Assembly: GCA_020341815.1 (NCBI GenBank)
Contig: CP070837.1
Span: 311,035-375,034, forward strand
Length of the DNA stretch: 64,000 nucleotides
From: Candidatus Omnitrophota bacterium
Lineage (GTDB): Bacteria; Omnitrophota; Gorgyraeia; JAFGHF01
Reading direction: 5' to 3'
The notes under the pieces were generated by a model. It had not been told where the DNA came from. It saw nothing but the letters and a program-made list of their open reading frames with translations, and made no database searches. Positions within the stretch are counted from its first letter, which is position 1. Each line of letters begins with the position of its first letter. Both the position numbers and the translations under genes were made by a program. Positions 4,558 to 63,578 of the stretch are shown here, piece by piece.

Positions 4558-5187
4558 ATGGCGGAGAAAAAATCACAAAAAAAAGCAGAAGAGACGAAAC
4601 AGGCCCGCCTAAAGACTGGCGGACAGGCCCGCCCGCCCTCGGCTTCGCCGAGAGGCGAGACGGCGAGGCAGGAAGAGCTGAAACAGCCGGAATTAATAGA
4701 AAAAGTAGTTGCTGTTAATCGCACTGCAAAAGTAGTTAAGGGTGGCCGGCGTTTCGCATTTAGCGCTTTGGTAGTGGTGGGGGATGCTTGCGGTAATCTG
4801 GGTTATGGCTTCGGCAAGGCGCGTGAAGTGGCTGAGGCCATTCGTAAAGGTTTAAATGCAGCCAAGAAACATATGTTTAAGGTTTCCTTAAAAGATACCA
4901 CCATTATTCATGAAATTGAAGGAAAGTTTAGCGCGGCAAGAGTTATTTTAAAGCCCGCCTCAAAAGGAACAGGGGTAATTGCCGGCGGGGCGGTGAGAGC
5001 GGTATGTGAAGCCGCGGGAATTAAGGATATATTAACTAAAAGTATTCGTTCCGATAATCCTATCAATGTAGCCAGGGCCGCTATCGAAGGTCTGCTTAGT
5101 CTGAAAACTGAAAAAACTCAAAGTCAAACTTTCATAGATGAGTCTGAGGCTGAGGCCGAAGAAGAGGCAACTGATGCGACTCAATGA
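4558..5187 (+). CDS. rpsE: 30S ribosomal protein S5, with a basic N-terminal and an acidic C-terminal extension
   Basis: Core [27 protein letters not shown] is S5. The 209 aa length is longer than a typical S5. Confidence 0.9.
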
Positions 5188-10176: not shown

Positions 10177-11160
10177 ATGGGAGTTAAATGGAGAAATTTT
10201 GAAATGCCGAAGAGATTGGAATGTGATGAGTCCACATATTCTGATTCTTATGCCAAATTTATTGCGGAGCCTTTTGAACGAGGATATGGCATTACTGTCG
10301 GCAACTCTTTGCGAAGGATATTGATTTCTTCCATAGAGGGTAGTGCCGTCACTTCTGTTAAGATTGAAGGGGTATTGCACGAATTTTCCAGTATTCCCGG
10401 AGTTGTCGAAGATGTCCCTGAGATTATCTTAAATATCAAAAGGCTCATCTTGCGCGCACACACTAAAAACCCTAAGACCATTTTTATTAAAATAGAAAAG
10501 AAGGGAGACGTCAAGGCCCGGGATATCATTACGGATGAGACCGTTGAGGTCATCAATCCCGATTTGCACATCGCTACGCTTTCTAAAAATACGAAGTTTT
10601 ATGTGGAGATGGAAGTGGGGCGCGGCAGGGGTTATGTCTCTGCGGAAAAAAACAAAAAAGAATCCCATGCTCTGGGAGTCATACCTGTAGACTCGATATT
10701 TTCACCGGTAACAAGAGTAAATTTCCATGTGGAAAACACCCGCGTAGGGCAGATGACCGATTATGAGCGGCTTATTCTGGAGGTCTGGACCAATAAAAGC
10801 ATGAACCCTAAAGACAGTCTGCTTTATGCCTCTAACATACTGCAGAAACACCTGGAGGTATTTGTCGGCTTCGGTCAGTTGCCCGAAGAAGAGGTAGCCG
10901 AAGAAAGCGAAGAGGATCAGGAGCTCTATGAAAAATTAAGGCAGCCTATTTCCGAGCTTGAGCTTTCGGTAAGAAGCGTCAATTGCCTGGAGGAGGCAAA
11001 AATCAAGACTATCGGAGACCTGGTGCAGAAGACAGAGATGGAAATGCTCAAATACAGAAACTTTGGCAAAAAGTCTTTAACCGAGATCAACAATATTCTT
11101 AAATCGTTATCTTTGTCTTTAGGGATGAAAGTAGACACAAAGAGATTGAAGAAAAAATAA
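10177..11160 (+). CDS. rpoA: DNA-directed RNA polymerase alpha subunit
   Basis: 327 aa with NSLRRILISSIEG... and a C-terminal alphaCTD (ELSVRSVNCLEEAKIKTIGDL). Confidence 0.95.
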   Translation: MGVKWRNFEMPKRLECDESTYSDSYAKFIAEPFERGYGITVGNSLRRILISSIEGSAVTSVKIEGVLHEFSSIPGVVEDVPEIILNIKRLILRAHTKNPKTIFIKIEKKGDVKARDIITDETVEVINPDLHIATLSKNTKFYVEMEVGRGRGYVSAEKNKKESHALGVIPVDSIFSPVTRVNFHVENTRVGQMTDYERLILEVWTNKSMNPKDSLLYASNILQKHLEVFVGFGQLPEEEVAEESEEDQELYEKLRQPISELELSVRSVNCLEEAKIKTIGDLVQKTEMEMLKYRNFGKKSLTEINNILKSLSLSLGMKVDTKRLKKK

Positions 11161-11164
11161 GGAG

Positions 11165-11250
11165 ACACTGAAACCACTGAAAAATAATCACTGAAACCAC
11201 TGAAGTTTTTCTTTCAGTCTTCTCAGTGATAATTTCAGTCTTCTCAGTGA
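11165..11250. repeat. Family-1 repeat element, copy B: two direct CACTGAAACCACTGAA units, a T-run, then two inverted TTTCAGTCTTCTCAGTGAT units. Sits between rpoA and rplQ.
   Basis: Direct reading. Same unit as copies A, C and D. Confidence 0.75.
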
Positions 11251-11258
11251 TTACAAAA

Positions 11259-11786
11259 ATGCGCCATCGAAAATTTTCTAAAAGACGCATCAGTCGCAAA
11301 TATGGGCATCGCCGCTCTACATTGCGCAATCTGGTAATCAATCTTTTAAAATATCAAAAAATCAAGACTACGCCCGCTAAGGCACGTCTTGCGCAGTCTT
11401 CATTTGAACATTTGGTCTCTTTAGCCAAAAAAGACACGCTTCATTCGCGCAGACAGGCCTATAAACTGCTGGATAACAGGGCTGCGGTCTTGGAGCTCTT
11501 TTCACGAATCACTCCTTTATTTAAGGGGAAGACTTCAGGCTTTACCCGAATAATTCGCACCTCTTACAGGCACGGAGACGGCGCGCAATTAGTCTTTCTG
11601 GAACTTACAAATAAGTTGCCTAAGGTAAAGCCCCGCAAAGCTCCGCATGAGAAACCTAAGGCGGAAGTTAAAGAAAAGGAAGAGATAAAACCTAAAGAAA
11701 AGCTCAGGGCCCCTAAGAAATTGAAGCCGAAGAAATTTTTAGGAGGCTTACGCCGGCTATTTAAAAAGGAAAGAGATGCTCTGTGA
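11259..11786 (+). CDS. rplQ: 50S ribosomal protein L17 with a Lys/Pro-rich C-terminal extension of about 60 aa. The track ORF begins at 11226; I prefer the ATG at 11259.
   Basis: MRHRKFSKRRISRKYGHRRSTLRNL... canonical L17 start. Tail KVKPRKAPHEKPKAEVKEKEEIKPKEK... Confidence 0.88.
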   Translation: MRHRKFSKRRISRKYGHRRSTLRNLVINLLKYQKIKTTPAKARLAQSSFEHLVSLAKKDTLHSRRQAYKLLDNRAAVLELFSRITPLFKGKTSGFTRIIRTSYRHGDGAQLVFLELTNKLPKVKPRKAPHEKPKAEVKEKEEIKPKEKLRAPKKLKPKKFLGGLRRLFKKERDAL

Positions 11787-11901
11787 ACCCAGCCCTTCCA
11801 AATACCACGCCTTGCTATAATAGCTATGGATAAAAGCAATAGATAAAAGGAAGGATGGGGATAAAGGCTTGACATTATCAAGAAAGGAAGGGCTGGGTGA
11901 A
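11784..11901 (+). promoter_or_regulatory. Family-3 element, diverged copy 1. Runs from the rplQ stop codon TGA to the GTG start of the downstream aminotransferase. Closed by the inverted repeat ACCCAGCCCTTCC / GGAAGGGCTGGGT. Contains TGCTATAAT (extended -10-like) and TTGACA.
   Basis: Aligns end-to-end with 29353-29469 and 31021-31137. Shows a compensatory C>A / G>T change in the terminal stem relative to the other copies. Confidence 0.6.
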
Positions 11902-27627: not shown

Positions 27628-28550
27628 GAGAAATGTTTGCTTTATCTACTTCCTGGAATGCCTCAAGACATTCCAGGGCCAAAGACATAATAGATGAAAT
27701 TAAAAGCCTCGGCTTCGGCCAGGTAGAGCTCAACTTCAACCTTACCTCAAAGATGGTTGAAGATATGGTTTCACTAAAGGAAGAAGGGGCAATAGAAATA
27801 GTCTCTGTGCATAACTTCTGCCCTATACCTGAAGGCGCCTCGCGGCAAAATGCCTCGCCTGATATGTTTTCTCTATCGGCTCTGGATGAGGCAGAGCGCA
27901 AAAAGGCGATTGATTATACAAAAAGGACTATAGATACAGCCGTAAGAGCCGGCGCAAAAGCCGTGGTATTGCACGGGGGCAAGGTCAAGGTGCAGGAGAG
28001 AATTAAGGAGCTGATTCTCTTTCAGGAAAATAGGCAAAAATATAATGAACTAAGACAACAGATGCTAAAGGAAAGGCAAGGCAAATCAAAAGACTTCTTT
28101 AATCAGACTCTTAGGAGCCTTGAAGAATTATGCCGCTATGCCCAGAGGCAAGAAGTAAAATTAGGCATTGAAAACAGATATTACTTCAGCGAAATCCCCG
28201 ACTTTAAGGAAATGGAAATAATTCTGGCCACTTTTTCCGGAGGGCCGCTTTATTACTGGCACGATGTGGGACACGCCCAGGTATATGAGTATTTGGGATT
28301 TATTAAACATAAGGAAATATTAGACAAGTTCGCTGATGGTATGGTTGGTATACATCTGCATGATGTAGAAGGAATAGACGACCATCGCGCCCCTTTAAAG
28401 GGAAAATTTGATTTTAGTCTGCTCAAGCCTTATCTGAAAAAAGAAACCCTGAAAGTGCTGGAGCCGCATTATCCGGCAACAAAAAAAGAGGTATTAGAAG
28501 GCAAAAGATACCTGGAAGAGCTGTTTGAAAAAGTAGGGAGCGAAAAATGA
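27624..28550 (+). CDS. Sugar phosphate isomerase/epimerase (xylose-isomerase-like TIM barrel)
   Basis: ALSTSWNA...GFGQVEL...HLHDVEG metal-binding pattern of AP endonuclease family 2 / TIM-barrel isomerases. Confidence 0.65.
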   Translation: MREMFALSTSWNASRHSRAKDIIDEIKSLGFGQVELNFNLTSKMVEDMVSLKEEGAIEIVSVHNFCPIPEGASRQNASPDMFSLSALDEAERKKAIDYTKRTIDTAVRAGAKAVVLHGGKVKVQERIKELILFQENRQKYNELRQQMLKERQGKSKDFFNQTLRSLEELCRYAQRQEVKLGIENRYYFSEIPDFKEMEIILATFSGGPLYYWHDVGHAQVYEYLGFIKHKEILDKFADGMVGIHLHDVEGIDDHRAPLKGKFDFSLLKPYLKKETLKVLEPHYPATKKEVLEGKRYLEELFEKVGSEK

Positions 28551-29350
28551 TAAGAGAGCCAGAAGTAGCAGGGCAATTCTATCCGGCAACTCCCGCAGCC
28601 TTAAAGAAGGTGCTGGAGCACCTGGTCGAGAAAAAAGGAAAAAAAGAACAGGCCTTGGGACTGCTTTCGCCTCACGCCGGATATGTATTCTCGGGACAGG
28701 TAGCGGGAATAGGCTTTTCTAAAGTTAAATTAACCGACACCGTGATTATCTTAGGGCCCAATCATACCGGGCGGGGCGCACCTTTCAGCATTATGACAGA
28801 GGGCACCTGGCATATGCCTATGGGTAATGTGGAAGTAGACAGCGAGCTGGCCAAAAATATATTGGAGGAATCGAAGTATCTGGAAGAAGACGTAGAGGCG
28901 CATATATATGAGCATTCCATCGAGGTACAACTTCCGTTCCTGCAATTTCTTTTACCTAAAATTAAGATATTGCCGATAGTTCTCTCTGCGGCAGACTTTA
29001 TGATTTATGAGGAAATCGGCAAGGCCATAGCCAAGACCTTAAAAGCCAACAAAAAGAATTGCCTAATTATAGCCTCAAGCGATATGACCCATCATGAGCC
29101 CCGTAAAAAAGCAGAGGAGGACGACAAATTGGCTATCGAGGCAATGCTTAAGCTGGATGCGCAGGAACTCCTCAGGCGAATACAGAAGTTCAATATTACT
29201 ATGTGCGGCTACGGTCCGGCGGTCTCTATGCTTTGCGCTGTCAAAGAACTGGGGGCAAAAACGGCAAAGTTAATCAAATACCAGACCAGCGCCGATGTAA
29301 CGGGGGATGAGACCTCGGTAGTGGGCTATGCCGGCATAATGGTGTTATAG
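28547..29350 (+). CDS. MEMO1-family protein (AmmeMemoRadiSam system protein B)
   Basis: GQFYP signature. HAGYVFSG and SSDMTHHEP motifs. Confidence 0.8.
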   Translation: MIREPEVAGQFYPATPAALKKVLEHLVEKKGKKEQALGLLSPHAGYVFSGQVAGIGFSKVKLTDTVIILGPNHTGRGAPFSIMTEGTWHMPMGNVEVDSELAKNILEESKYLEEDVEAHIYEHSIEVQLPFLQFLLPKIKILPIVLSAADFMIYEEIGKAIAKTLKANKKNCLIIASSDMTHHEPRKKAEEDDKLAIEAMLKLDAQELLRRIQKFNITMCGYGPAVSMLCAVKELGAKTAKLIKYQTSADVTGDETSVVGYAGIMVL

Positions 29351-29352
29351 AA

Positions 29353-29469
29353 TGAACCCCGCCCTTCCAAACATCACGCTTTGCATAATAGATATAGGCA
29401 AAGATAATAAAAGAAAGGGCGGAATAAAATTTAACCTTGGCCTTACGAAGAAAGGAAGGGCGGGGTGAA
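29353..29469 (+). promoter_or_regulatory. Family-3 element, copy 2. Runs from TGA just after the upstream stop to the GTG start of the downstream gene. Inverted repeat ACCCCGCCCTTCC / GGAAGGGCGGGGT.
   Basis: About 98% identical to 31021-31137. Ends AAGAAAGGAAGGGCGGGGTGAA, where the GTG is the start of ORF 29465. Confidence 0.7.
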
Positions 29470-30412
29470 AAAAAACAAATTATTTGTTTTTTTAAGAATA
29501 TTGATTAGCCTCTGTTTGCTGGCATTGCTGCTATGGCTGGGCCGGGACAATTTCGCAAAAATCGGACAACTATTGAGCTCGGTCAATATATCTATTTTTG
29601 GGCTGGCTCTTGTGTTATTTCTGCTTAGTATTATTATTATGGCCTGGAGGCTGCGGCTTGCGCTGATTGTGCAGGGAAGCTCTTTCGGTGTGGGTGCGCT
29701 ATTTTCTCTGACACTGGTGGGGCTTTTCTTTAGCAATTTTATGCCTACTTCGGTCGGTGGGGACTTGGTAAAAGGCTATTATATTTCTCGCAAAAACAAA
29801 AACAAAATGTCCTCATACGCCTCCGTCTTCGTTGACCGGGTAATAGGCGTCTTTTCCCTTGCCTTAATCGCAAGTGCTGCCCTTGTGATTGGCAGGGGAG
29901 ATATTGAGCATAAGTTTATATTCTGGACCATTGGCCTTTTACTTGTGGCCTGCATTATATCTGCACTTTGTCTGATGAATAAGAAATTGCTGAAGAAAAT
30001 AAGCGGCTCCCTGGGCATCCTGCGTCTTTTGCGCATCTTAAAAGTCGATTCTCTTCTTAAGAGGGCATATGAGGCTATAAACATTTATATAAATTACAAA
30101 AAAACAATCTTTCAATTATTTACTCTTTCTCTGGTCTCGCAATTTATTTCCTTTTTCTCTATGTACATTTTGGCTAACAGCCTCTCACTTTACATTCCTT
30201 TTGAAAGGATTCTTCTGGTTATGCCGATTATTATTGTCTTATGCATGCTGCCTCTGACCATGAATGGATTGGGCCTGCGCGAATGGGCCTTTGTCTTTTT
30301 CTTCAGCCCCAATGTGGGCGAGGCCGCTGCGCTTTCATTTTCGCTGTTATATCTGGCAATGTTTCTCTTGACCAGCCTTTTGGGTGGAATAATCTATTTA
30401 TTCTGGAGGTAA
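29465..30412 (+). CDS. Polytopic membrane protein of the flippase-like / LPG_synthase_TM (UPF0104) family
   Basis: 315 aa with about 8 TM helices. N-terminus typical of UPF0104. GTG start within the family-3 element. Confidence 0.6.
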   Translation: MKKNKLFVFLRILISLCLLALLLWLGRDNFAKIGQLLSSVNISIFGLALVLFLLSIIIMAWRLRLALIVQGSSFGVGALFSLTLVGLFFSNFMPTSVGGDLVKGYYISRKNKNKMSSYASVFVDRVIGVFSLALIASAALVIGRGDIEHKFIFWTIGLLLVACIISALCLMNKKLLKKISGSLGILRLLRILKVDSLLKRAYEAINIYINYKKTIFQLFTLSLVSQFISFFSMYILANSLSLYIPFERILLVMPIIIVLCMLPLTMNGLGLREWAFVFFFSPNVGEAAALSFSLLYLAMFLLTSLLGGIIYLFWR

Positions 30413-30415
30413 AAA

Positions 30416-30574
30416 ATGGATGAAGAACTATTGAATATTCTGGCCTGCCCTGCCTGCAAGGCCGATGTAGAATTAAAAGAAGACAAAGTAGTCTGTAAGG
30501 GCTGTAAAGCCAAATATCCAATCCGGGACGGTATTCCCATTATGTTAATCGAAGAGAGGGAAACAGAACAATGA
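30416..30574 (+). CDS. Trm112/YcaR-like small zinc-ribbon protein (UPF0434). Not in the ORF track.
   Basis: My translation [52 protein letters not shown] shows the typical Trm112 pattern. ATGA overlap with aroQ. Confidence 0.75.
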
Positions 30575-31017
30575 CAAAGATATTAGTTATTCACGGGCCC
30601 AATCTGGACCTTTTAGGTAAGCGCCAGCCGGAAATCTATGGTAGTTTTACCCTGGATGAAATCAACAAGCGCATGAAGAAAATAGCACAGGAAGAGAAGA
30701 TAGAAATAGAATTCTTACAATCCAACCACGAAGGCGAGATTGTCGATGCCATCGGAGAGGCAAAGAATAAGTTCTCCGTCCTACTGATTAATCCGGCTGC
30801 CTACACCCATACCAGCGTGGCTATTCGCGATGCCATCAGCGCCTCAGGCCTGCCTTGCGTGGAAGTTCATCTGTCGAATATTTACGCCCGCGAAGAGTTC
30901 AGACACACCTCTTTAATTGCCCCTGTGGCTAGAGGCCAAATCTGCGGATTCGGCATTGACAGTTACCTTCTAGGGTTACGCGCGGCAATAAACCTGGCAA
31001 AGGCAAGGGGCGCTTAA
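30571..31017 (+). CDS. aroQ: 3-dehydroquinate dehydratase, type II
   Basis: [24 protein letters not shown]... with [15 protein letters not shown] motifs. Confidence 0.92.
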
Positions 31018-31020
31018 GGG

Positions 31021-31137
31021 TGAACCCCGCCCTTCCAAATATCACGCTTTGCATAATAGATATAGGCAAAGATAATAAAAGAAAGGGCGGAATAAAATTT
31101 AACCTTGGCCTTACGAAGAAAGGAAGGGCGGGGTGAA
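31021..31137 (+). promoter_or_regulatory. Family-3 element, copy 3 (near-identical to copy 2). Runs from TGA after the aroQ stop to the GTG start of pepP.
   Basis: Direct alignment to 29353-29469. Ends GGAAGGGCGGGGTGAA with the GTG at 31133. Confidence 0.7.
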
Positions 31138-32182
31138 TACTGCGGCCATAAATAAATTACGTCAGGAACTCTCCCGGCATAAGCTTGACGCCTTCCTGAT
31201 AAGTAAAGGCACAAATGTAGCCTATCTCAGCGGGTTTAGAGGGGAGGGCCAGCTTTTAATTACCCCGAGCAAAAAAATCCTGCTTGTCGACTTCAGGTTT
31301 AAAGAAGAGGCTGAGAAACATTGTGCATCTTGTCGCGTTTATACGCGTGAGGCCTTTGAGCCGTTGGAGAAAAGCCTGTTTTATTTAGTTAAAAAATTAA
31401 GGTTCAAAAGGATAGGGTTTGAGGCCTCATCTTTGTCCTATGAGTTTCATCATAAACTGAAAAATATTTTTAAATCTATAAAGCTATTACCTCTTGGGAG
31501 AGTTATAGAGGCCCTGCGAGCGGTAAAGAACGGGCAGGAGATTAAGCATCTTAAGGCGGCCGCCGCCCTGAGCGTAAGGAGCTTTGACTTTGCCAGAAAG
31601 ATTATCCGGCCCGGCAAAAAGGAGGCGGAAATTGCCCGCGAACTTCAATACTTTATACGCAAGCAGGGAGCTGAAGACTCTGCCTTTGATATAATTGTGG
31701 CCTCCGGCAAGAGGAGCTCGCTGCCCCATGCGCCTGTTTCCGCTAAAGTTATCAAAAAAAATGAGGTGGTTCTGGTAGACTTAGGATGCCGCCTGAACGG
31801 CTACAATTCCGACTTGACAAGGGTGGTCTTTTTAGGTAAAATTAGGGACAAAATTAAGCGGGTTTATGAGGTAGTTCTTCGGGCGCAACGGCTTGCGATC
31901 GAGGCCATAAAGGCGGGCGAAAGGGTAAGCGAGATCGATAAGGTGGCGCGCCAATACATAGCCAGCGCCGGCTTAGGGGCCCTTTTTGGACATGCCTTAG
32001 GGCACGGCATCGGCAGAGAAGTCCATGAACAGCCCTATATTTCCCCTAACAATCAGGACTTCTTAAAAGAAAATATGGTATTTACGGTGGAGCCGGGAGT
32101 TTATATACCTGGCTTAGGCGGGATAAGAGTGGAGGATATGGTTCGCGTTACCAGAAGAGGCGTTGAGGTATTGACCCAGTGA
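31133..32182 (+). CDS. pepP: Xaa-Pro aminopeptidase (M24B)
   Basis: 349 aa. M24 metal ligands: ...[13 protein letters not shown]..., [17 protein letters not shown]. Confidence 0.85.
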
Positions 32183-33206: not shown

Positions 33207-34562
33207 ATGTTTTCTAAAGTCCTGATTGCCAATCGGGGAGAGATTGCTTTAAGGATTATCCGCGCCTGCAAAGAAATGGGCGTGCGCACCGTAGCGGTCT
33301 ACTCCCAGCCCGATGTTAATTCTCTACACGTGCGTCTGGCGGATGAGGCCATCTGTATCGGCCGCGCCGCGCCGGCTGAGAGCTATCTGAGCATCCCCAG
33401 CATTATCAGCGCAGCCGAGATTGCCGATGTGGAAGCCATCCATCCCGGTTATGGCTTTCTGGCGGAAAATGCCCACTTTGCGGAAATCTGCGCTTCCTGT
33501 AACATCAATTTCATCGGGCCAAAGCCTGAGCCGATGAGGTTAATGGGCGATAAGCTGCAGGCGAAGGCCACTATGCGCAAGGCCGGAATACCGGTTGTGC
33601 CCGGCAGCACAGAAGCGGTGCAGGACAAAGACAAGGCCATAAAGATTGCCCAGCGGCTTAAATATCCGGTGATTATTAAGGCCGCAGCCGGAGGCGGCGG
33701 CAAAGGAATGCGCGTATGCCATAACGATGTGCGCCTGGTCAGCGCCCTGCTTACAGCCCAGGCGGAGGCAGAGGCAGCTTTCGGCAAGCCGGAGGTCTAC
33801 ATAGAGAAATATTTTTCCCGGCCGCGCCATATAGAGTTTCAAATCCTGGCGGATAACTTTGGGCGCATAATTCATTTAGGGGAAAGGGACTGCACTATCC
33901 AAAGACGCCATCAGAAGCTAATCGAAGAATCGCCCTCTATGGCTATCAATGCTAAACTGCGCAAACGTATGGGGGAGGCCGCCATCAAGGCCGCCAAGTC
34001 CGTCAATTACAATAGCGCAGGCACCATAGAATTTCTTCTTGATGAAAAAAACAATTTTTATTTTTTGGAAATGAATACGCGTATTCAGGTTGAGCACGGC
34101 GTTACCGAAATGGTTACGGGCGTAGACCTGCTCAAAGAGCAAATCAGGATTGCCGCGGGAGAGAAATTACGCCTTAACCAGGACGATGTCAAAATAAAAG
34201 GATGGGCAATGGAGTGCCGCATCAACGCCGAAGACCCCAACAACAACTTCACGCCTTCCCCTGGAAGGATCACCTCCTACAATGTCCCGGGCGGACCGGG
34301 GGTGCGCGTTGACAGCTGCGTATATCAGAATTATAATATCCTGCCTTATTATGATTCCCTGATTGCCAAGCTGATTGCGCACGGCAAAACAAGGAATGAG
34401 GCCATCCGGATTATGCTGCGGGCGCTTGAGGAATACGTAATCGAACCGGTAAAGACGACTCTGCCTTTTTGCAGAGACGTATTGAACGACGCGCGCTTCT
34501 TGAGAGGCAAGGTTTATACAGATTTTACGGATATCTTGATTTCCGAAAAACAAAAAGAGTAA
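33207..34562 (+). CDS. accC: Biotin carboxylase
   Basis: 451 aa ATP-grasp with [21 protein letters not shown]-terminus. Immediately downstream of accB. Confidence 0.95.
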
Positions 34563-34626
34563 CACTGAGGACACTGAAAGAAAAATTTCAGTGGTTTCAG
34601 TGTAACAATTTCAGTGATTTCAGTGA
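34562..34626. repeat. Family-1 repeat element, copy C: one direct ACACTGAGGACACTGAAAG unit, an A/T spacer, then two inverted units (TCAGTGGTTTCAGTG and TCAGTGATTTCAGTGA). Begins at the accC stop codon.
   Basis: Direct reading. Same CACTGA(A/G)-based unit as copies A, B and D. Confidence 0.7.
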
Positions 34627-34642
34627 TAAAAGGGAGGTAAAA

Positions 34643-47820: not shown

Positions 47821-47910
47821 CAGTATTTAGTCGTTCGTATTTCGTATCTAGTAAAACAAAAAAATAATAAAAATTTTTAACAAGATACTAGATACTAGCG
47901 ACTAGATACT
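47821..47910. repeat. Family-2 repeat element, copy 2
   Basis: CAGTATTTAGTCGTTCGTATTTCGTATCTAGTAAAACAAAAAAATAATAAAAATTTTTAACAAGATACTAGATACTAGCGACTAGATACT aligns with copies at 1657 and 62718. Confidence 0.75.
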
Positions 47911-62102: not shown

Positions 62103-62720
62103 ATGTTTAATAAAATAAAAAATAATTTTCTTACCGGGCTTGTGGTAATCCTTCCTCTTATTCTTACTATAATAATTTTCCGATTTCTGATAAAACAGAT
62201 TAACGATATTGTGCTGGTGCCGACAATGGAATTATTGGGTCTGCATTTCTATAATCCTTATTGGGTATATATATCCAGAGGCATCGGTTTTTTGATTATA
62301 GTTCTACTTATAATCTTAATCGGCCTGGCAACGAGATTGCTTCTCTTGCGTAAATTTTTCGGCTTCTGGGAAAAGCTGATAGCAAAAGTGCCGATGCTCG
62401 GCAAAATCTATATTACTATAAAACAGATAAGCCGCGCATTTTTAGGGCAGGGTAAATATGTATTTGATAAGGTGGTACTGGTCGAGTATCCGCGCCGGGG
62501 CATATATTCCCTGGGTTTTATTACAGCCGAAGGCTGCGAAGAAATCCAGGAAAAGACTAAAACAGGCAGCGTTTATGTCTTTTTACCCACTACCCCTAAC
62601 CCTACCAACGGCTTCTTCTTAATCATCCCCAAAGAGGAGGTCGTACCGCTTTCGATGTCCGTGGCCGATGCTTTTAAACTTATTGTTTCCGGCGGAACCT
62701 TCTCGCCGCCACATAAATAG
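62103..62720 (+). CDS. DUF502-family membrane protein
   Basis: 205 aa with two N-terminal TM helices and the conserved core of the DUF502 (COG2928) family. Its stop TAG is the first base triplet of the family-2 repeat. Confidence 0.6.
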   Translation: MFNKIKNNFLTGLVVILPLILTIIIFRFLIKQINDIVLVPTMELLGLHFYNPYWVYISRGIGFLIIVLLIILIGLATRLLLLRKFFGFWEKLIAKVPMLGKIYITIKQISRAFLGQGKYVFDKVVLVEYPRRGIYSLGFITAEGCEEIQEKTKTGSVYVFLPTTPNPTNGFFLIIPKEEVVPLSMSVADAFKLIVSGGTFSPPHK

Positions 62721-62810
62721 TATCTAGTATCTAGTCGTTAGTATCTAGTTAAAATTTTTTTGTCTTTTACTAGATACCAGATACAAGCGACTAGCGACTA
62801 ATTAGCGACT
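62718..62810. repeat. Family-2 repeat element, copy 3: (TAGTATC)x2, TAGTCGT, TAGTATC, an AT-rich core, then inverted ACTAGATACCAGATACAAGCGACTAGCGACT
   Basis: Direct reading. Aligns with copies at 1657 and 47821. Begins with the stop codon of the upstream gene. Confidence 0.75.
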
Positions 62811-62816
62811 AATAAT

Positions 62817-63578
62817 ATGGCTATCCAGAAAAGCGAAGCGATTGTCTTGAAAACTTCTGACTTTCGCGAAACCAGCCTCGTGGTAAATCTTTTCACAAAG
62901 GATTTTGGCAAGCTCGGCGGCCTCATCAAAGGCATAAGGCTTACCCCCCAAAGATACGGGGGAATGCCTCTGATTTTCTCCCGCAGCTCCATTGTGTTTT
63001 ATCAAAATCCCAAAAGAGATTTAAGCCTGGTTACCCAGTGCGATGCCCAGGAACAATTCCTGCCTATCCGGGAAGATTTAGAAAAGACCGCTTACGCCAA
63101 TTATTTTCTCGAGCTTCTGGATACGGTTACCCAGGATTATGATAAAAACGAAAGGCTTTTTGAATTAACGGTCGATGCCTTAAGAGCCCTTTGTCATACC
63201 CGGGAAAGCTGGCGGATTGCCCGCATATTCGAAATTCGGCTTTTGAATTTTTCAGGGTTTAAGCCGCGCCTGGATTCCTGCGTCAACTGCCAAAAAGAGA
63301 TTGTTCAAGAGGCCCGCCTAAAGACTGGCGGGCAGGGCAGATTTAGTTCAATCCTGGGAGGCATACTTTGTGAGCGCTGCTTTGGGCATGATAAAAATGC
63401 CCAGGCAACACTAAAAGGAACCCTGGCCTCCATAGAGTATATTGAAAAATCGGACTGGTCCAAGGCACTGCGTCTTAAAATAGCTCCTGATATAGCGGCA
63501 GAGCTGGTAACCATTTTGAATAGCTTCCTGGATATCCACTTAGACAAAGAGATCAAATCCCGAAAATTTTTACACTGA
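62817..63578 (+). CDS. recO: DNA repair protein RecO
   Basis: MAIQKSEAIVLKTSDFRETSLVV OB-fold N-terminus. C-terminal CVNCQKE...CERC zinc finger. Confidence 0.85.
   Translation: MAIQKSEAIVLKTSDFRETSLVVNLFTKDFGKLGGLIKGIRLTPQRYGGMPLIFSRSSIVFYQNPKRDLSLVTQCDAQEQFLPIREDLEKTAYANYFLELLDTVTQDYDKNERLFELTVDALRALCHTRESWRIARIFEIRLLNFSGFKPRLDSCVNCQKEIVQEARLKTGGQGRFSSILGGILCERCFGHDKNAQATLKGTLASIEYIEKSDWSKALRLKIAPDIAAELVTILNSFLDIHLDKEIKSRKFLH

Follow-up and report, generated by a model that had tools for sequence, protein, structure and literature searches.

Three copies of an inverted-repeat element at gene boundaries

The stretch of DNA analyzed here, referred to as the window, is a 64-kb segment of a Candidatus Omnitrophota metagenome-assembled genome (MAG; contig CP070837.1, 1.55 Mb, positions 311,035 to 375,034), in which a repeat finder identified one family of short, boundary-associated elements with three members, all on the forward strand. 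Copy A (29353 to 29469) lies between a gene for a Memo-like protein (28547 to 29350) and a membrane-protein gene of the LPG_synthase_TM type (29465 to 30412); copy B (31021 to 31137) lies between aroQ (30571 to 31017) and pepP (31133 to 32182); and copy C (11784 to 11901) lies between rplQ (11226 to 11786) and an aminotransferase gene (GTG at 11897). Copies A and B are 117 nt long, counting the TGAA at either end, while copy C measures 118 nt and belongs to a diverged subfamily (found by the repeat finder at approximately 11785 to 11901, with 61% ungapped identity to copy A, the reference). An earlier note on this DNA had described a near-identical 117-bp pair and one diverged copy, and that description holds, except that the identity between copies A and B is 99% (116/117 bases, a single mismatch) rather than 98%. 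The same note had placed copies A and B directly after the upstream stop codon, but these stops (TAG at 29348 to 29350 and TAA at 31015 to 31017) end 2 to 3 nt before the TGAA; in copy C, the TGA of the element (11784 to 11786) is itself the rplQ stop codon.

All three copies share the layout (A/G)TGAA-CCC(C/A)GCCCTTCC ... AAGAAAGGAAGGGC(G/T)GGG-TGAA, the 3' part of which can also be written ...GGAAGGGC(G/T)GGG-TGAA. As stated before, each 13-nt arm is the exact reverse complement of the other (ACCCCGCCCTTCC and GGAAGGGCGGGGT); the arms form perfect terminal inverted repeats in 3/3 copies, and in copy C a change on one arm is compensated on the other (ACCCAGCCC and GGGCTGGGT, also given as CCCAGCCC and GGGCTGGG). 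When the window was scanned for arms with up to two mismatches, 10 sites were found against 1.5 expected, a number reached in 0 of 100 shuffles; among these 10, only the six arms of the three copies are true arms at gene boundaries, and a looser, fuzzy scan of the 64 kb recovered no copies beyond the three.

In copy A, the 5' TGAA (29353 to 29356) forms, together with A29352, the displaced original ATG of the host gene and is followed by the 5' arm ACCCCGCCCTTCC (29356 to 29368), the anti-Shine-Dalgarno side of the stem discussed below. A vestigial open frame of 38 codons (29352 to 29468) runs from this ATG to a TGA that overlaps the GTG of the next gene (GTGA); it has no Pfam match. Its interior contains the TTTGCATAAT motif, similar to a -10 promoter element (29380 to 29389), and an imperfect inner copy of the 3' arm, AAAGGGCGG (29414 to 29422), both present as previously described. 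The 3' arm GGAAGGGCGGGGT (29454 to 29466) carries the Shine-Dalgarno (SD) sequence GGAAGGG and extends two bases into the GTG start (29465 to 29467), and a second TGAA (29466 to 29469) completes the element. Copy B is organized identically, with arms at 31024 to 31036 and 31122 to 31134, TGAA duplicates at 31021 to 31024 and 31134 to 31137, a vestigial frame at 31020 to 31136, and the GTG at 31133 to 31135. In copy C, the arms with the matched change, ACCCAGCCCTTCC (11787 to 11799) and GGAAGGGCTGGGT (11886 to 11898), are accompanied by TGAA duplicates at 11784 to 11787 and 11898 to 11901 and by an inner arm, GGAAGGATGGGG, within 11843 to 11864. In every case, the downstream GTG consists of the last G of the element and the TG of the 3' TGAA. 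The assignment of these GTG codons as start codons was confirmed: those at 29465, 31133, and 11897 are the earliest possible starts of their open reading frames (ORFs), and GTG is also the start in the corresponding NCBI proteins (P0001 and P0241, with 100% identity and coverage).

Empty sites and target-site duplication

Exact look-ups of window proteins gave no match; homologues of these proteins led to two contigs from a single sample (SRR24270831), L125 (13 kb) and L126 (6.5 kb), that show 92 to 94% DNA identity to the window and conserved gene order (protein identity is 90% for PepP [P0002] and 95% for the aminotransferase). In L125, a gap of 1 nt separates the Memo-like gene from the membrane-protein gene, and one of 2 nt separates aroQ from pepP. 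All three sites are empty in these contigs: the element is absent, and the start codon region contains TGAA only once. Site A reads ...GGCATAAG ATGAA AAAAAATAAA... in L125 (4444 to 4460, preceded by CATAAG) and ...TATAGA ATGAA (element) GGGG TGAA AAAAAACAAA in the window. Similarly, site B reads GCTTAAGG GTGAA TACTGCGG in L125 (5996 to 6012; also given as ...GCGCTTAAGG GTGAA TACTGCGG) and ...GCGCTTAAGG GTGAA (element) GGGG TGAA TACTGCGG when filled. Site C is empty in L126 (...GATGCTCTG TGAA AATAGCCCG, with a GTGA stop/start overlap) as well as in L127, a 71% relative. A blastn comparison of L125 with the window yielded three colinear blocks of 91 to 94% identity, the ends of which overlap on TGAA (site A) and GGGTGAA (site B) alone; the flanks remain 92 to 94% identical right up to the TGAA, without co-conversion. 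The flanks of copies A and B have no homology to each other apart from the TGAA, and no element arm was found in the 19.5 kb of L125 and L126.

The empty sites indicate that all three copies arose in the lineage of the window, each with a 4-bp TGAA duplication. At site A, the start of the membrane-protein gene changed from ATGAAAAAA in the relative to GTGAAAAAA in the window, the G being donated by the element, so that the host start went from ATG to GTG because of the insertion. Since the closest relative has none of the three insertions, which lie within 64 kb and come from two arm subfamilies, the element must have been active very recently in the lineage of the window. Among copies that were checked individually, some have flanks other than TGAA, with the same 4-mer on both sides: TAAA/TAAA in L095 (where TAA is the upstream stop) and L046, TTGA/TTGA in L008, and TGAG/TGAG in L083, where the arms covary (CCCCGCACCTTC and GAAGGTGCGGGG) and the element occupies a stop/GTG-start junction. 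Variable 4-mers that match on both sides point to a real target duplication rather than to a part of the element. On these comparisons, the window elements are shown to be insertions with a 4-bp target-site duplication, nearly always TGAA. The mobile or duplicated cassette of the earlier note is thereby borne out by three filled and empty site pairs, although the note had missed both the TGAA target duplication and the deletion origin described below.

Distribution of the family and properties of its target sites

The case for a cassette had been made to depend on further copies elsewhere, and these were found. The two-arm pattern returned four loci in species-representative genomes, of which two (L002 and L004, the latter an Omnitrophota MAG) are true relatives and two (L001 and L003) were rejected as chance matches inside coding DNA. 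In metagenomes of many samples and assemblers, the exact 21-nt 3' end is present at 120 or more loci. A scan of viral contigs with the 3' arm gave 0 matches. The metagenome sample was selected by a pattern of TGAA plus the exact 3' arm or end, and since the 3' arm is fixed by that pattern, arm covariation beyond the C-G/A-T subfamily pair cannot be fairly measured in it.

For the 121 nonredundant copies listed, the GTG is in 99 cases the start of an ORF that has 80 codons or more, and in 11 further cases the ORF runs off the contig. A 5' arm lies no more than 450 nt away in 105/121, with ATGAA in front of it in 75 cases and GTGAA in 16; the arm pair is of the C/G type in 90, of the A/T type in 8, and unmatched in 7. 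Element lengths cluster at approximately 54 to 61, 75 to 87, 117, and 291 to 297 nt. The interior is variable across the family, and short forms in general carry the inner imperfect arm (GGAAG-n-GGGG) seen in copy A. The 106 downstream proteins form 70 unrelated clusters, and at least 70 gene families are represented overall. With a length of 117 to 118 nt, no Pfam match, and relatives at many unrelated sites, the window copies have the characteristics of miniature inverted-repeat transposable elements (MITEs).

From the filled sites, 81 preinsertion targets were reconstructed. The position immediately before the TGAA (-1) is occupied by A in 68 targets, by G in 12, and by T in 1, and never by C; positions -13 to -9 are purine rich, and no other specificity was seen in these targets. 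A strong SD core is located upstream in 47/98 cases, compared with an 11% background, and in 33/98 the upstream gene terminates at the 5' TGA (xTGA overlap). The reconstructed targets thus look like translation-initiation regions, and, on these alignments, the persisting copies are shown to sit in the (A/G)TGAA of start codons, often at an xTGA stop/start overlap. No reversed copy was seen among approximately 190 arms, a check on which we do not rely, as the sample was chosen by an oriented pattern; copies flanked by TAAA and TTTA show that both orientations occur. In tandem arrays (L007, L013, L051, L078, and L116), adjacent units share one TGAA. Arrays of two to four units (the same five loci and L123, in which short units immediately precede a full-length copy) fit the entry of new copies into the GTGAA of a resident one.

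A 96-residue GIY-YIG nuclease encoded by full-length copies

At approximately ten loci, a 291-nt form (from 5' TGAA to 3' TGAA) carries an intact 96-amino-acid (aa) GIY-YIG ORF (MNPALP...KKGRAG-stop); in forms of 291 to 297 nt, the whole interval from the 5' (A/G)TG to the 3' TGA is a single ORF (e.g., MNPALPKNWYYVYLLKSNDTPWIYIGCTNDL..RLKEH...KKGRAG-stop), and nine or more different sites hold a full-length copy. The two 13-nt arms are at the same time the first six codons of this ORF (M-N-P-A-L-P) and its last ones (K-K-G-R-A-G-stop). Its start codon, SD, and stop all come from the arms and the target, and in that sense the ORF is built into the element ends.

The ORF matches Pfam GIY-YIG (PF01541, E = 3.5e-14) and consists of this domain alone; neither Pfam nor the structure model revealed a separate DNA-binding domain in the 96-aa, single-domain protein, and with a GIY-YIG domain only, it is not a transposase of a known insertion sequence (IS) family. 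In the protein database, it corresponds to 160 clusters, mostly of 95 to 98 aa and annotated as GIY-YIG nuclease of Candidatus Omnitrophota; among the best 120 of these 160 clusters, 83 start with MNPALP at residue 1 and nearly all end in GRAG. One cluster (P0134) is labeled Candidatus Sungbacteria (candidate phyla radiation [CPR]), maybe through misbinning or cross-phylum transfer. The catalytic residues (Y13, Y24, R34, H38, and E58) are invariant, and ratios of nonsynonymous to synonymous substitution rates (dN/dS) between copies at different sites, leaving out L123, are 0.06 to 0.12 at a dS of about 1 or more, which argues that the nuclease is under selection as a protein. Third codon positions are variable in 65/83 core codons, compared with 1/6 codons of the 5' arm; the near-invariance of the latter suggests that the arm is constrained as nucleic acid.

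An AlphaFold (AF2) model of the protein has a mean predicted local distance difference test (pLDDT) score of 81.6. Residues 92 to 96, encoded by the 3' arm, score below 50 and the first strand begins at residue 10, so that in the model the arm-encoded C terminus has no structure and the arm-encoded N terminus precedes the first strand. The best structural matches are Slx1 (probability 1.0, 29 to 35% identity, template-modeling score of approximately 0.6) and the UPF0213 protein BH0048 (1zg2), with UvrC and I-TevI matching less well; BH0048 is also the best solved relative by sequence (E = 4e-6). Judged by predicted fold and catalytic residues, the parent ORF qualifies as a Slx1/UPF0213-type GIY-YIG nuclease.

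The parent gene itself seems to receive an even smaller hairpin form. Comparison of L099 with L015, which share a site, and also P0231 and P0240, revealed a 30-nt in-frame palindromic insert (..CCCAGCCCCTGCACGCAGGAGCTGGG..) after codon ~20 of the GIY-YIG ORF; it adds the peptide PAPARRSW, and its arms resemble the outer part of A/T-type element arms. In L020, a similar unit of approximately 26 nt is flanked by TGAA.

Derivation of the short forms by internal deletion

What the window copies retain of the parent, by alignment, is its first 20 nt and its last ~95 nt, and intermediates are present in L114, L115, and L117. In keeping with this, the vestigial frame of copy A aligns to both ends of the GIY-YIG ORF; the 20-letter window peptide corresponds to ..CAYKREK..KLKSRLGI.KKGRAG of the parent, and the motif similar to a -10 element, TGCATAAT, aligns to its codons C-A-Y (..C-A-Y-K/Q-R-E..). 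At one orthologous site, with a NuoD-like upstream gene and a common downstream gene, L053 and L057 hold full-length copies and L017 (135 nt) and L115 (142 nt) hold differently deleted ones, which indicates that the gene decays in place. Copies A and B, on the other hand, represent one deletion form, 99% identical, at two unrelated sites, indicating that short forms also move. By alignment, then, the window copies are best described as nonautonomous, MITE-like internal-deletion derivatives of the GIY-YIG cassette, with the peculiarity that, for all its MITE behavior, the element does not have a known transposase gene as its parent.

The reverse relationship is conceivable, in which short hairpin repeats are spread by some other host or IS enzyme and serve as landing pads, the GIY-YIG gene being a homing passenger that cuts resident repeats and is copied in by repair via arm homology. 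The orthologous site that holds either full-length or short forms would suit such a scheme, as would the conservation of approximately 20 to 27 nt at the ends, enough for short-homology repair, and GIY-YIG homing endonucleases are well known (PMC2988022). However, the short forms contain relics of C-terminal codons and have differing breakpoints, which argues for decay from gene to remnant; an ORF without start, SD, or stop beyond the arms and target is part of the ends rather than cargo; the 96-aa protein is a catalytic domain only, without the DNA-binding domain of the homing type; and no other transposase is associated with the element ends. We therefore regard homing into preexisting repeats as unlikely, though it is the strongest of the alternatives.

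Translation signals, stem formation, and the promoter question

As had been anticipated, folding of the three copies as RNA predicted a 13-bp closing stem in each of the minimum-free-energy structures (-40 to -44 kcal/mol, z = -3.3 to -6.0), and five other family members likewise have this stem in their minimum-free-energy fold. In these predicted folds, the SD and the GU of the GUG start are locked in the stem. The donation of SD and start codon to unrelated genes was likewise confirmed, both by the ATGAAAAAA-to-GTGAAAAAA change at site A and by the at least 70 gene families found downstream. Of the 69 short elements, 43 have a length that keeps the frame (p = 8e-7), and the ORF frame is free of stops in 43/69, compared with 2 and 4 in the other two frames. 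Gating of translational coupling from the upstream gene, as proposed before, is plausible on the basis of these folds and frame statistics.

The donation of a promoter, in contrast, was not supported. The promoter-like match within the element scores 9/12, the region contains 4 promoter-like sites against 5.0 expected from shuffles, and the alignment of TGCATAAT to parent codons makes the motif look like a coding relic. This bears on the possibility that the element is a dedicated cis-regulatory cassette, from which an internal promoter would give SD-free transcripts while read-through would lock the SD in the manner of an RNA switch or thermometer. Such a cassette could make use of the closing stem across the SD and GU of the GUG, the motif similar to a -10 element (copy C has TGCTATAAT), and an alternative pairing via the inner arm, and T4 endonuclease cassettes do embed promoters and hairpins at the ribosome-binding site (RBS) (PMC2988022). 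Yet, the nearest relative runs the same operons and expresses the same genes without the element, the downstream genes belong to about 70 unrelated families, and the interior is unconserved and coding derived; promoter-like sites are not enriched, and at the Rfam gathering threshold the window yields a single tRNA and no match to the element. Regulation may be a side effect and not the nature of the element, and we consider a dedicated regulatory RNA quite improbable. Still less probable is a functional 38-residue microprotein (MNPALPN...KKGRAG) of which duplicates precede several genes: copies A and B do have an open frame, and short elements in general keep the frame, but copy C has a stop after 16 codons, the peptides of the family share only their arm-encoded ends, and conservation is at the nucleotide level, including synonymous sites, with no Pfam match. 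Finally, although copies A and B are nearly identical and only 1.67 kb apart, the shuffled controls, the recurrence at 120 or more independent loci across many samples and assemblers, the precise empty sites, and the nonhomologous flanks of A and B leave chance similarity, local duplication by gene conversion, or an assembly artifact with practically no probability.

Some copies have become part of host proteins. In L089, L121, and L067, which have no 5' arm, the host ORFs end in ...KKGRAG-stop, the 3' arm being fused in frame to the C terminus of the upstream protein (NusB-like, as judged by eye, in L121), and the upstream ORF of L027, which continues through the 5' arm, is extended by a tail of 25 residues. 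These in-frame fusions indicate that the element can remodel the C termini of host proteins.

A proposed mechanism and its weak points

In summary, we think it likely that the window elements are MITE-like derivatives of a very small mobile GIY-YIG cassette of Candidatus Omnitrophota. From the filled and empty sites, the element is shown to take the host SD and start codon for its own ORF and to hand the host gene a new SD and GTG. The 5' TGAA duplicate, together with the host's own SD and A or G, becomes the start of the element ORF; the last G of the element and the 3' TGAA make the new host GTG, with the SD GGAAGGG supplied by the 3' arm and the TGA of the element overlapping the GTG. With SD and GTG rebuilt in this way, the cassette joins the operon as an extra cistron, coupled through GTGA, and the downstream gene is not cut off. 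Movement itself may be brought about by the element-encoded, structure-specific Slx1-like nuclease acting on a hairpin or cruciform of the arms, which for the window copies would have to be supplied in trans. In the mRNA, the 13-bp stem would hide SD and GUG until opened by a ribosome, either one that is finishing the upstream gene or one that is translating the vestigial 38-codon frame, and a stem opened by ribosomes would preserve translational coupling.

A further-reaching proposal is that the 291-bp cassette, with the 96-residue Slx1-like GIY-YIG protein as its sole product, is an autonomous transposable element of a new enzymatic class, possibly the smallest autonomous one, that inserts at stop/start junctions (T-R-A-R, mostly TGAA), borrows the host SD and start, returns an SD and GTG in a stem that ribosomes can open, and spawns MITE-like derivatives that now start many Omnitrophota housekeeping genes. 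This we offer tentatively, with a confidence that falls slightly short of calling it probable.

Several observations weigh against these proposals. First, GIY-YIG enzymes are hydrolytic nucleases, and we know of no strand-transfer activity among them. Second, the 64-kb window contains no full-length copy, and none of the best 120 GIY-YIG clusters is on its 1.55-Mb contig. Third, ascertainment by a pattern of TGAA plus exact 3' arm accounts in part for the preference for TGAA, for the conserved 3' arm, and for the lack of reversed copies, and the location at start codons could reflect the survival of harmless insertions instead of targeting. Additionally, the case for SD masking and coupling is made from predicted folds and from frame statistics, and the open vestigial frames could in part reflect young age.

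Comparison with known systems

Bacterial MITEs, such as the Correia elements of Neisseria, ERIC, and RUP, are noncoding sequences of 50 to 150 nt with terminal inverted repeats and a short target duplication that are cotranscribed with their neighbors; many copies lie at gene boundaries, their mRNA hairpins can alter the expression of neighboring genes, and deletion derivatives are moved in trans. Their parents are IS elements with DDE-type transposases, where any are known, and they typically duplicate TA. The elements described here have the inverted repeats, the target duplication in filled versus empty sites, the small size, the many sites, and the origin by internal deletion in common with MITEs but differ in having a 291-nt parent with a 96-aa GIY-YIG protein as its sole product, in duplicating 4 bp (TGAA), and in rebuilding the SD and start of the host gene. 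REP/RAYT systems, IS200/IS605 elements, and PATEs also comprise palindromic repeats that bracket a small gene and occur alone, hairpin ends, and insertion beside a specific tetranucleotide, all of which recur here; REP/RAYT and IS200/IS605, however, use HUH (Y1) transposases and make no true target duplication, whereas the only ORF associated with the present family is GIY-YIG, with no HUH, and its flanking 4-mer varies but is duplicated.

To Slx1 and the UPF0213 (YhbQ-like) proteins, the likeness lies in the fold, the sequence match to BH0048, and the intact catalytic residues. Slx1 cuts branched and stem-loop DNA (as the titles of the matched PDB entries also state), requires Slx4, and has a RING domain; UPF0213 genes such as Escherichia coli yhbQ are single-copy housekeeping genes that are not flanked by inverted repeats. 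Rickettsia palindromic elements (RPEs), for which we know of no parent gene, are short palindromic repeats that insert in frame inside ORFs and add peptide segments; short palindromes that stay in frame within expressed regions are common to both, the location at start codons and the parent ORF being the difference.

The free-standing GIY-YIG genes of T4-like phages (seg) are promoter-less cassettes between conserved genes of a polycistronic unit, with start/stop overlaps suggestive of translational coupling and RNA hairpins that mask the RBS; the Seg proteins have DNA-binding domains and home to one cognate locus by double-strand-break repair, by which the flanks are co-converted (PMC2988022). 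Full-length members of the present family resemble them in the GIY-YIG domain, which the window copies have lost, and in being promoter-less intergenic cassettes. Inverted-repeat ends, a target duplication, and a swarm of noncoding derivatives, all present in this family, are absent from seg genes, whose single locus and co-conversion contrast with at least 70 unrelated sites, exact 4-bp duplications, and unconverted flanks. A full-text literature search of incomplete coverage, which leaves room for an earlier description, found no published account of such an element, the one helpful analogue being the T4 review (PMC2988022).

Other repeats in the window

Three further repeats were noticed in the window. 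A second intergenic family (47 to 143, 11153 to 11249, and, in reverse, 34560 to 34625) forms long AT-rich hairpins with tandem CACTGAAAC and CTTCAGTG around a T-run, at sites such as rpoA-rplQ and just upstream of the gene at 34640; these could be either terminators or a further small repeat element. The hairpins of a third intergenic family (1672 to 1760, 47822 to 47910, and 62714 to 62799) consist of AGTATCTAGT and ACTAGATACT with AGCGACT subrepeats around an A/T-rich loop, and its copies are 80 to 90% alike. Lastly, a 30-nt repeat, AA(C/G)AGGCCCGCCTAAAGACTGGCGG(A/G)CAGG, forms a short GC hairpin at 4598 to 4627 and 63307 to 63336 (93% identical, 58.7 kb apart).

Implications

To our knowledge, all established prokaryotic transposable elements use DDE/DEDD enzymes, HUH enzymes, serine or tyrosine recombinases, or Cas1. 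If the proposal is correct, an inverted-repeat element with target duplication built around a bare GIY-YIG nuclease would constitute a new class of transposon, with a possible selfish function for the widespread UPF0213/Slx1-like small nucleases, and the tiny nuclease, if hairpin specific, could be a useful reagent. For annotation, it is relevant that the elements create GTG starts and short spurious ORFs in MAGs; they are also likely break points in assemblies, and their insertion polymorphisms are usable for strain tracking. For the organism, the operon-neutral design shows how a parasite can settle in the tightly packed operons of a streamlined genome, with their translational coupling, and cause no polar damage; many essential genes may then come to depend on start signals derived from it.

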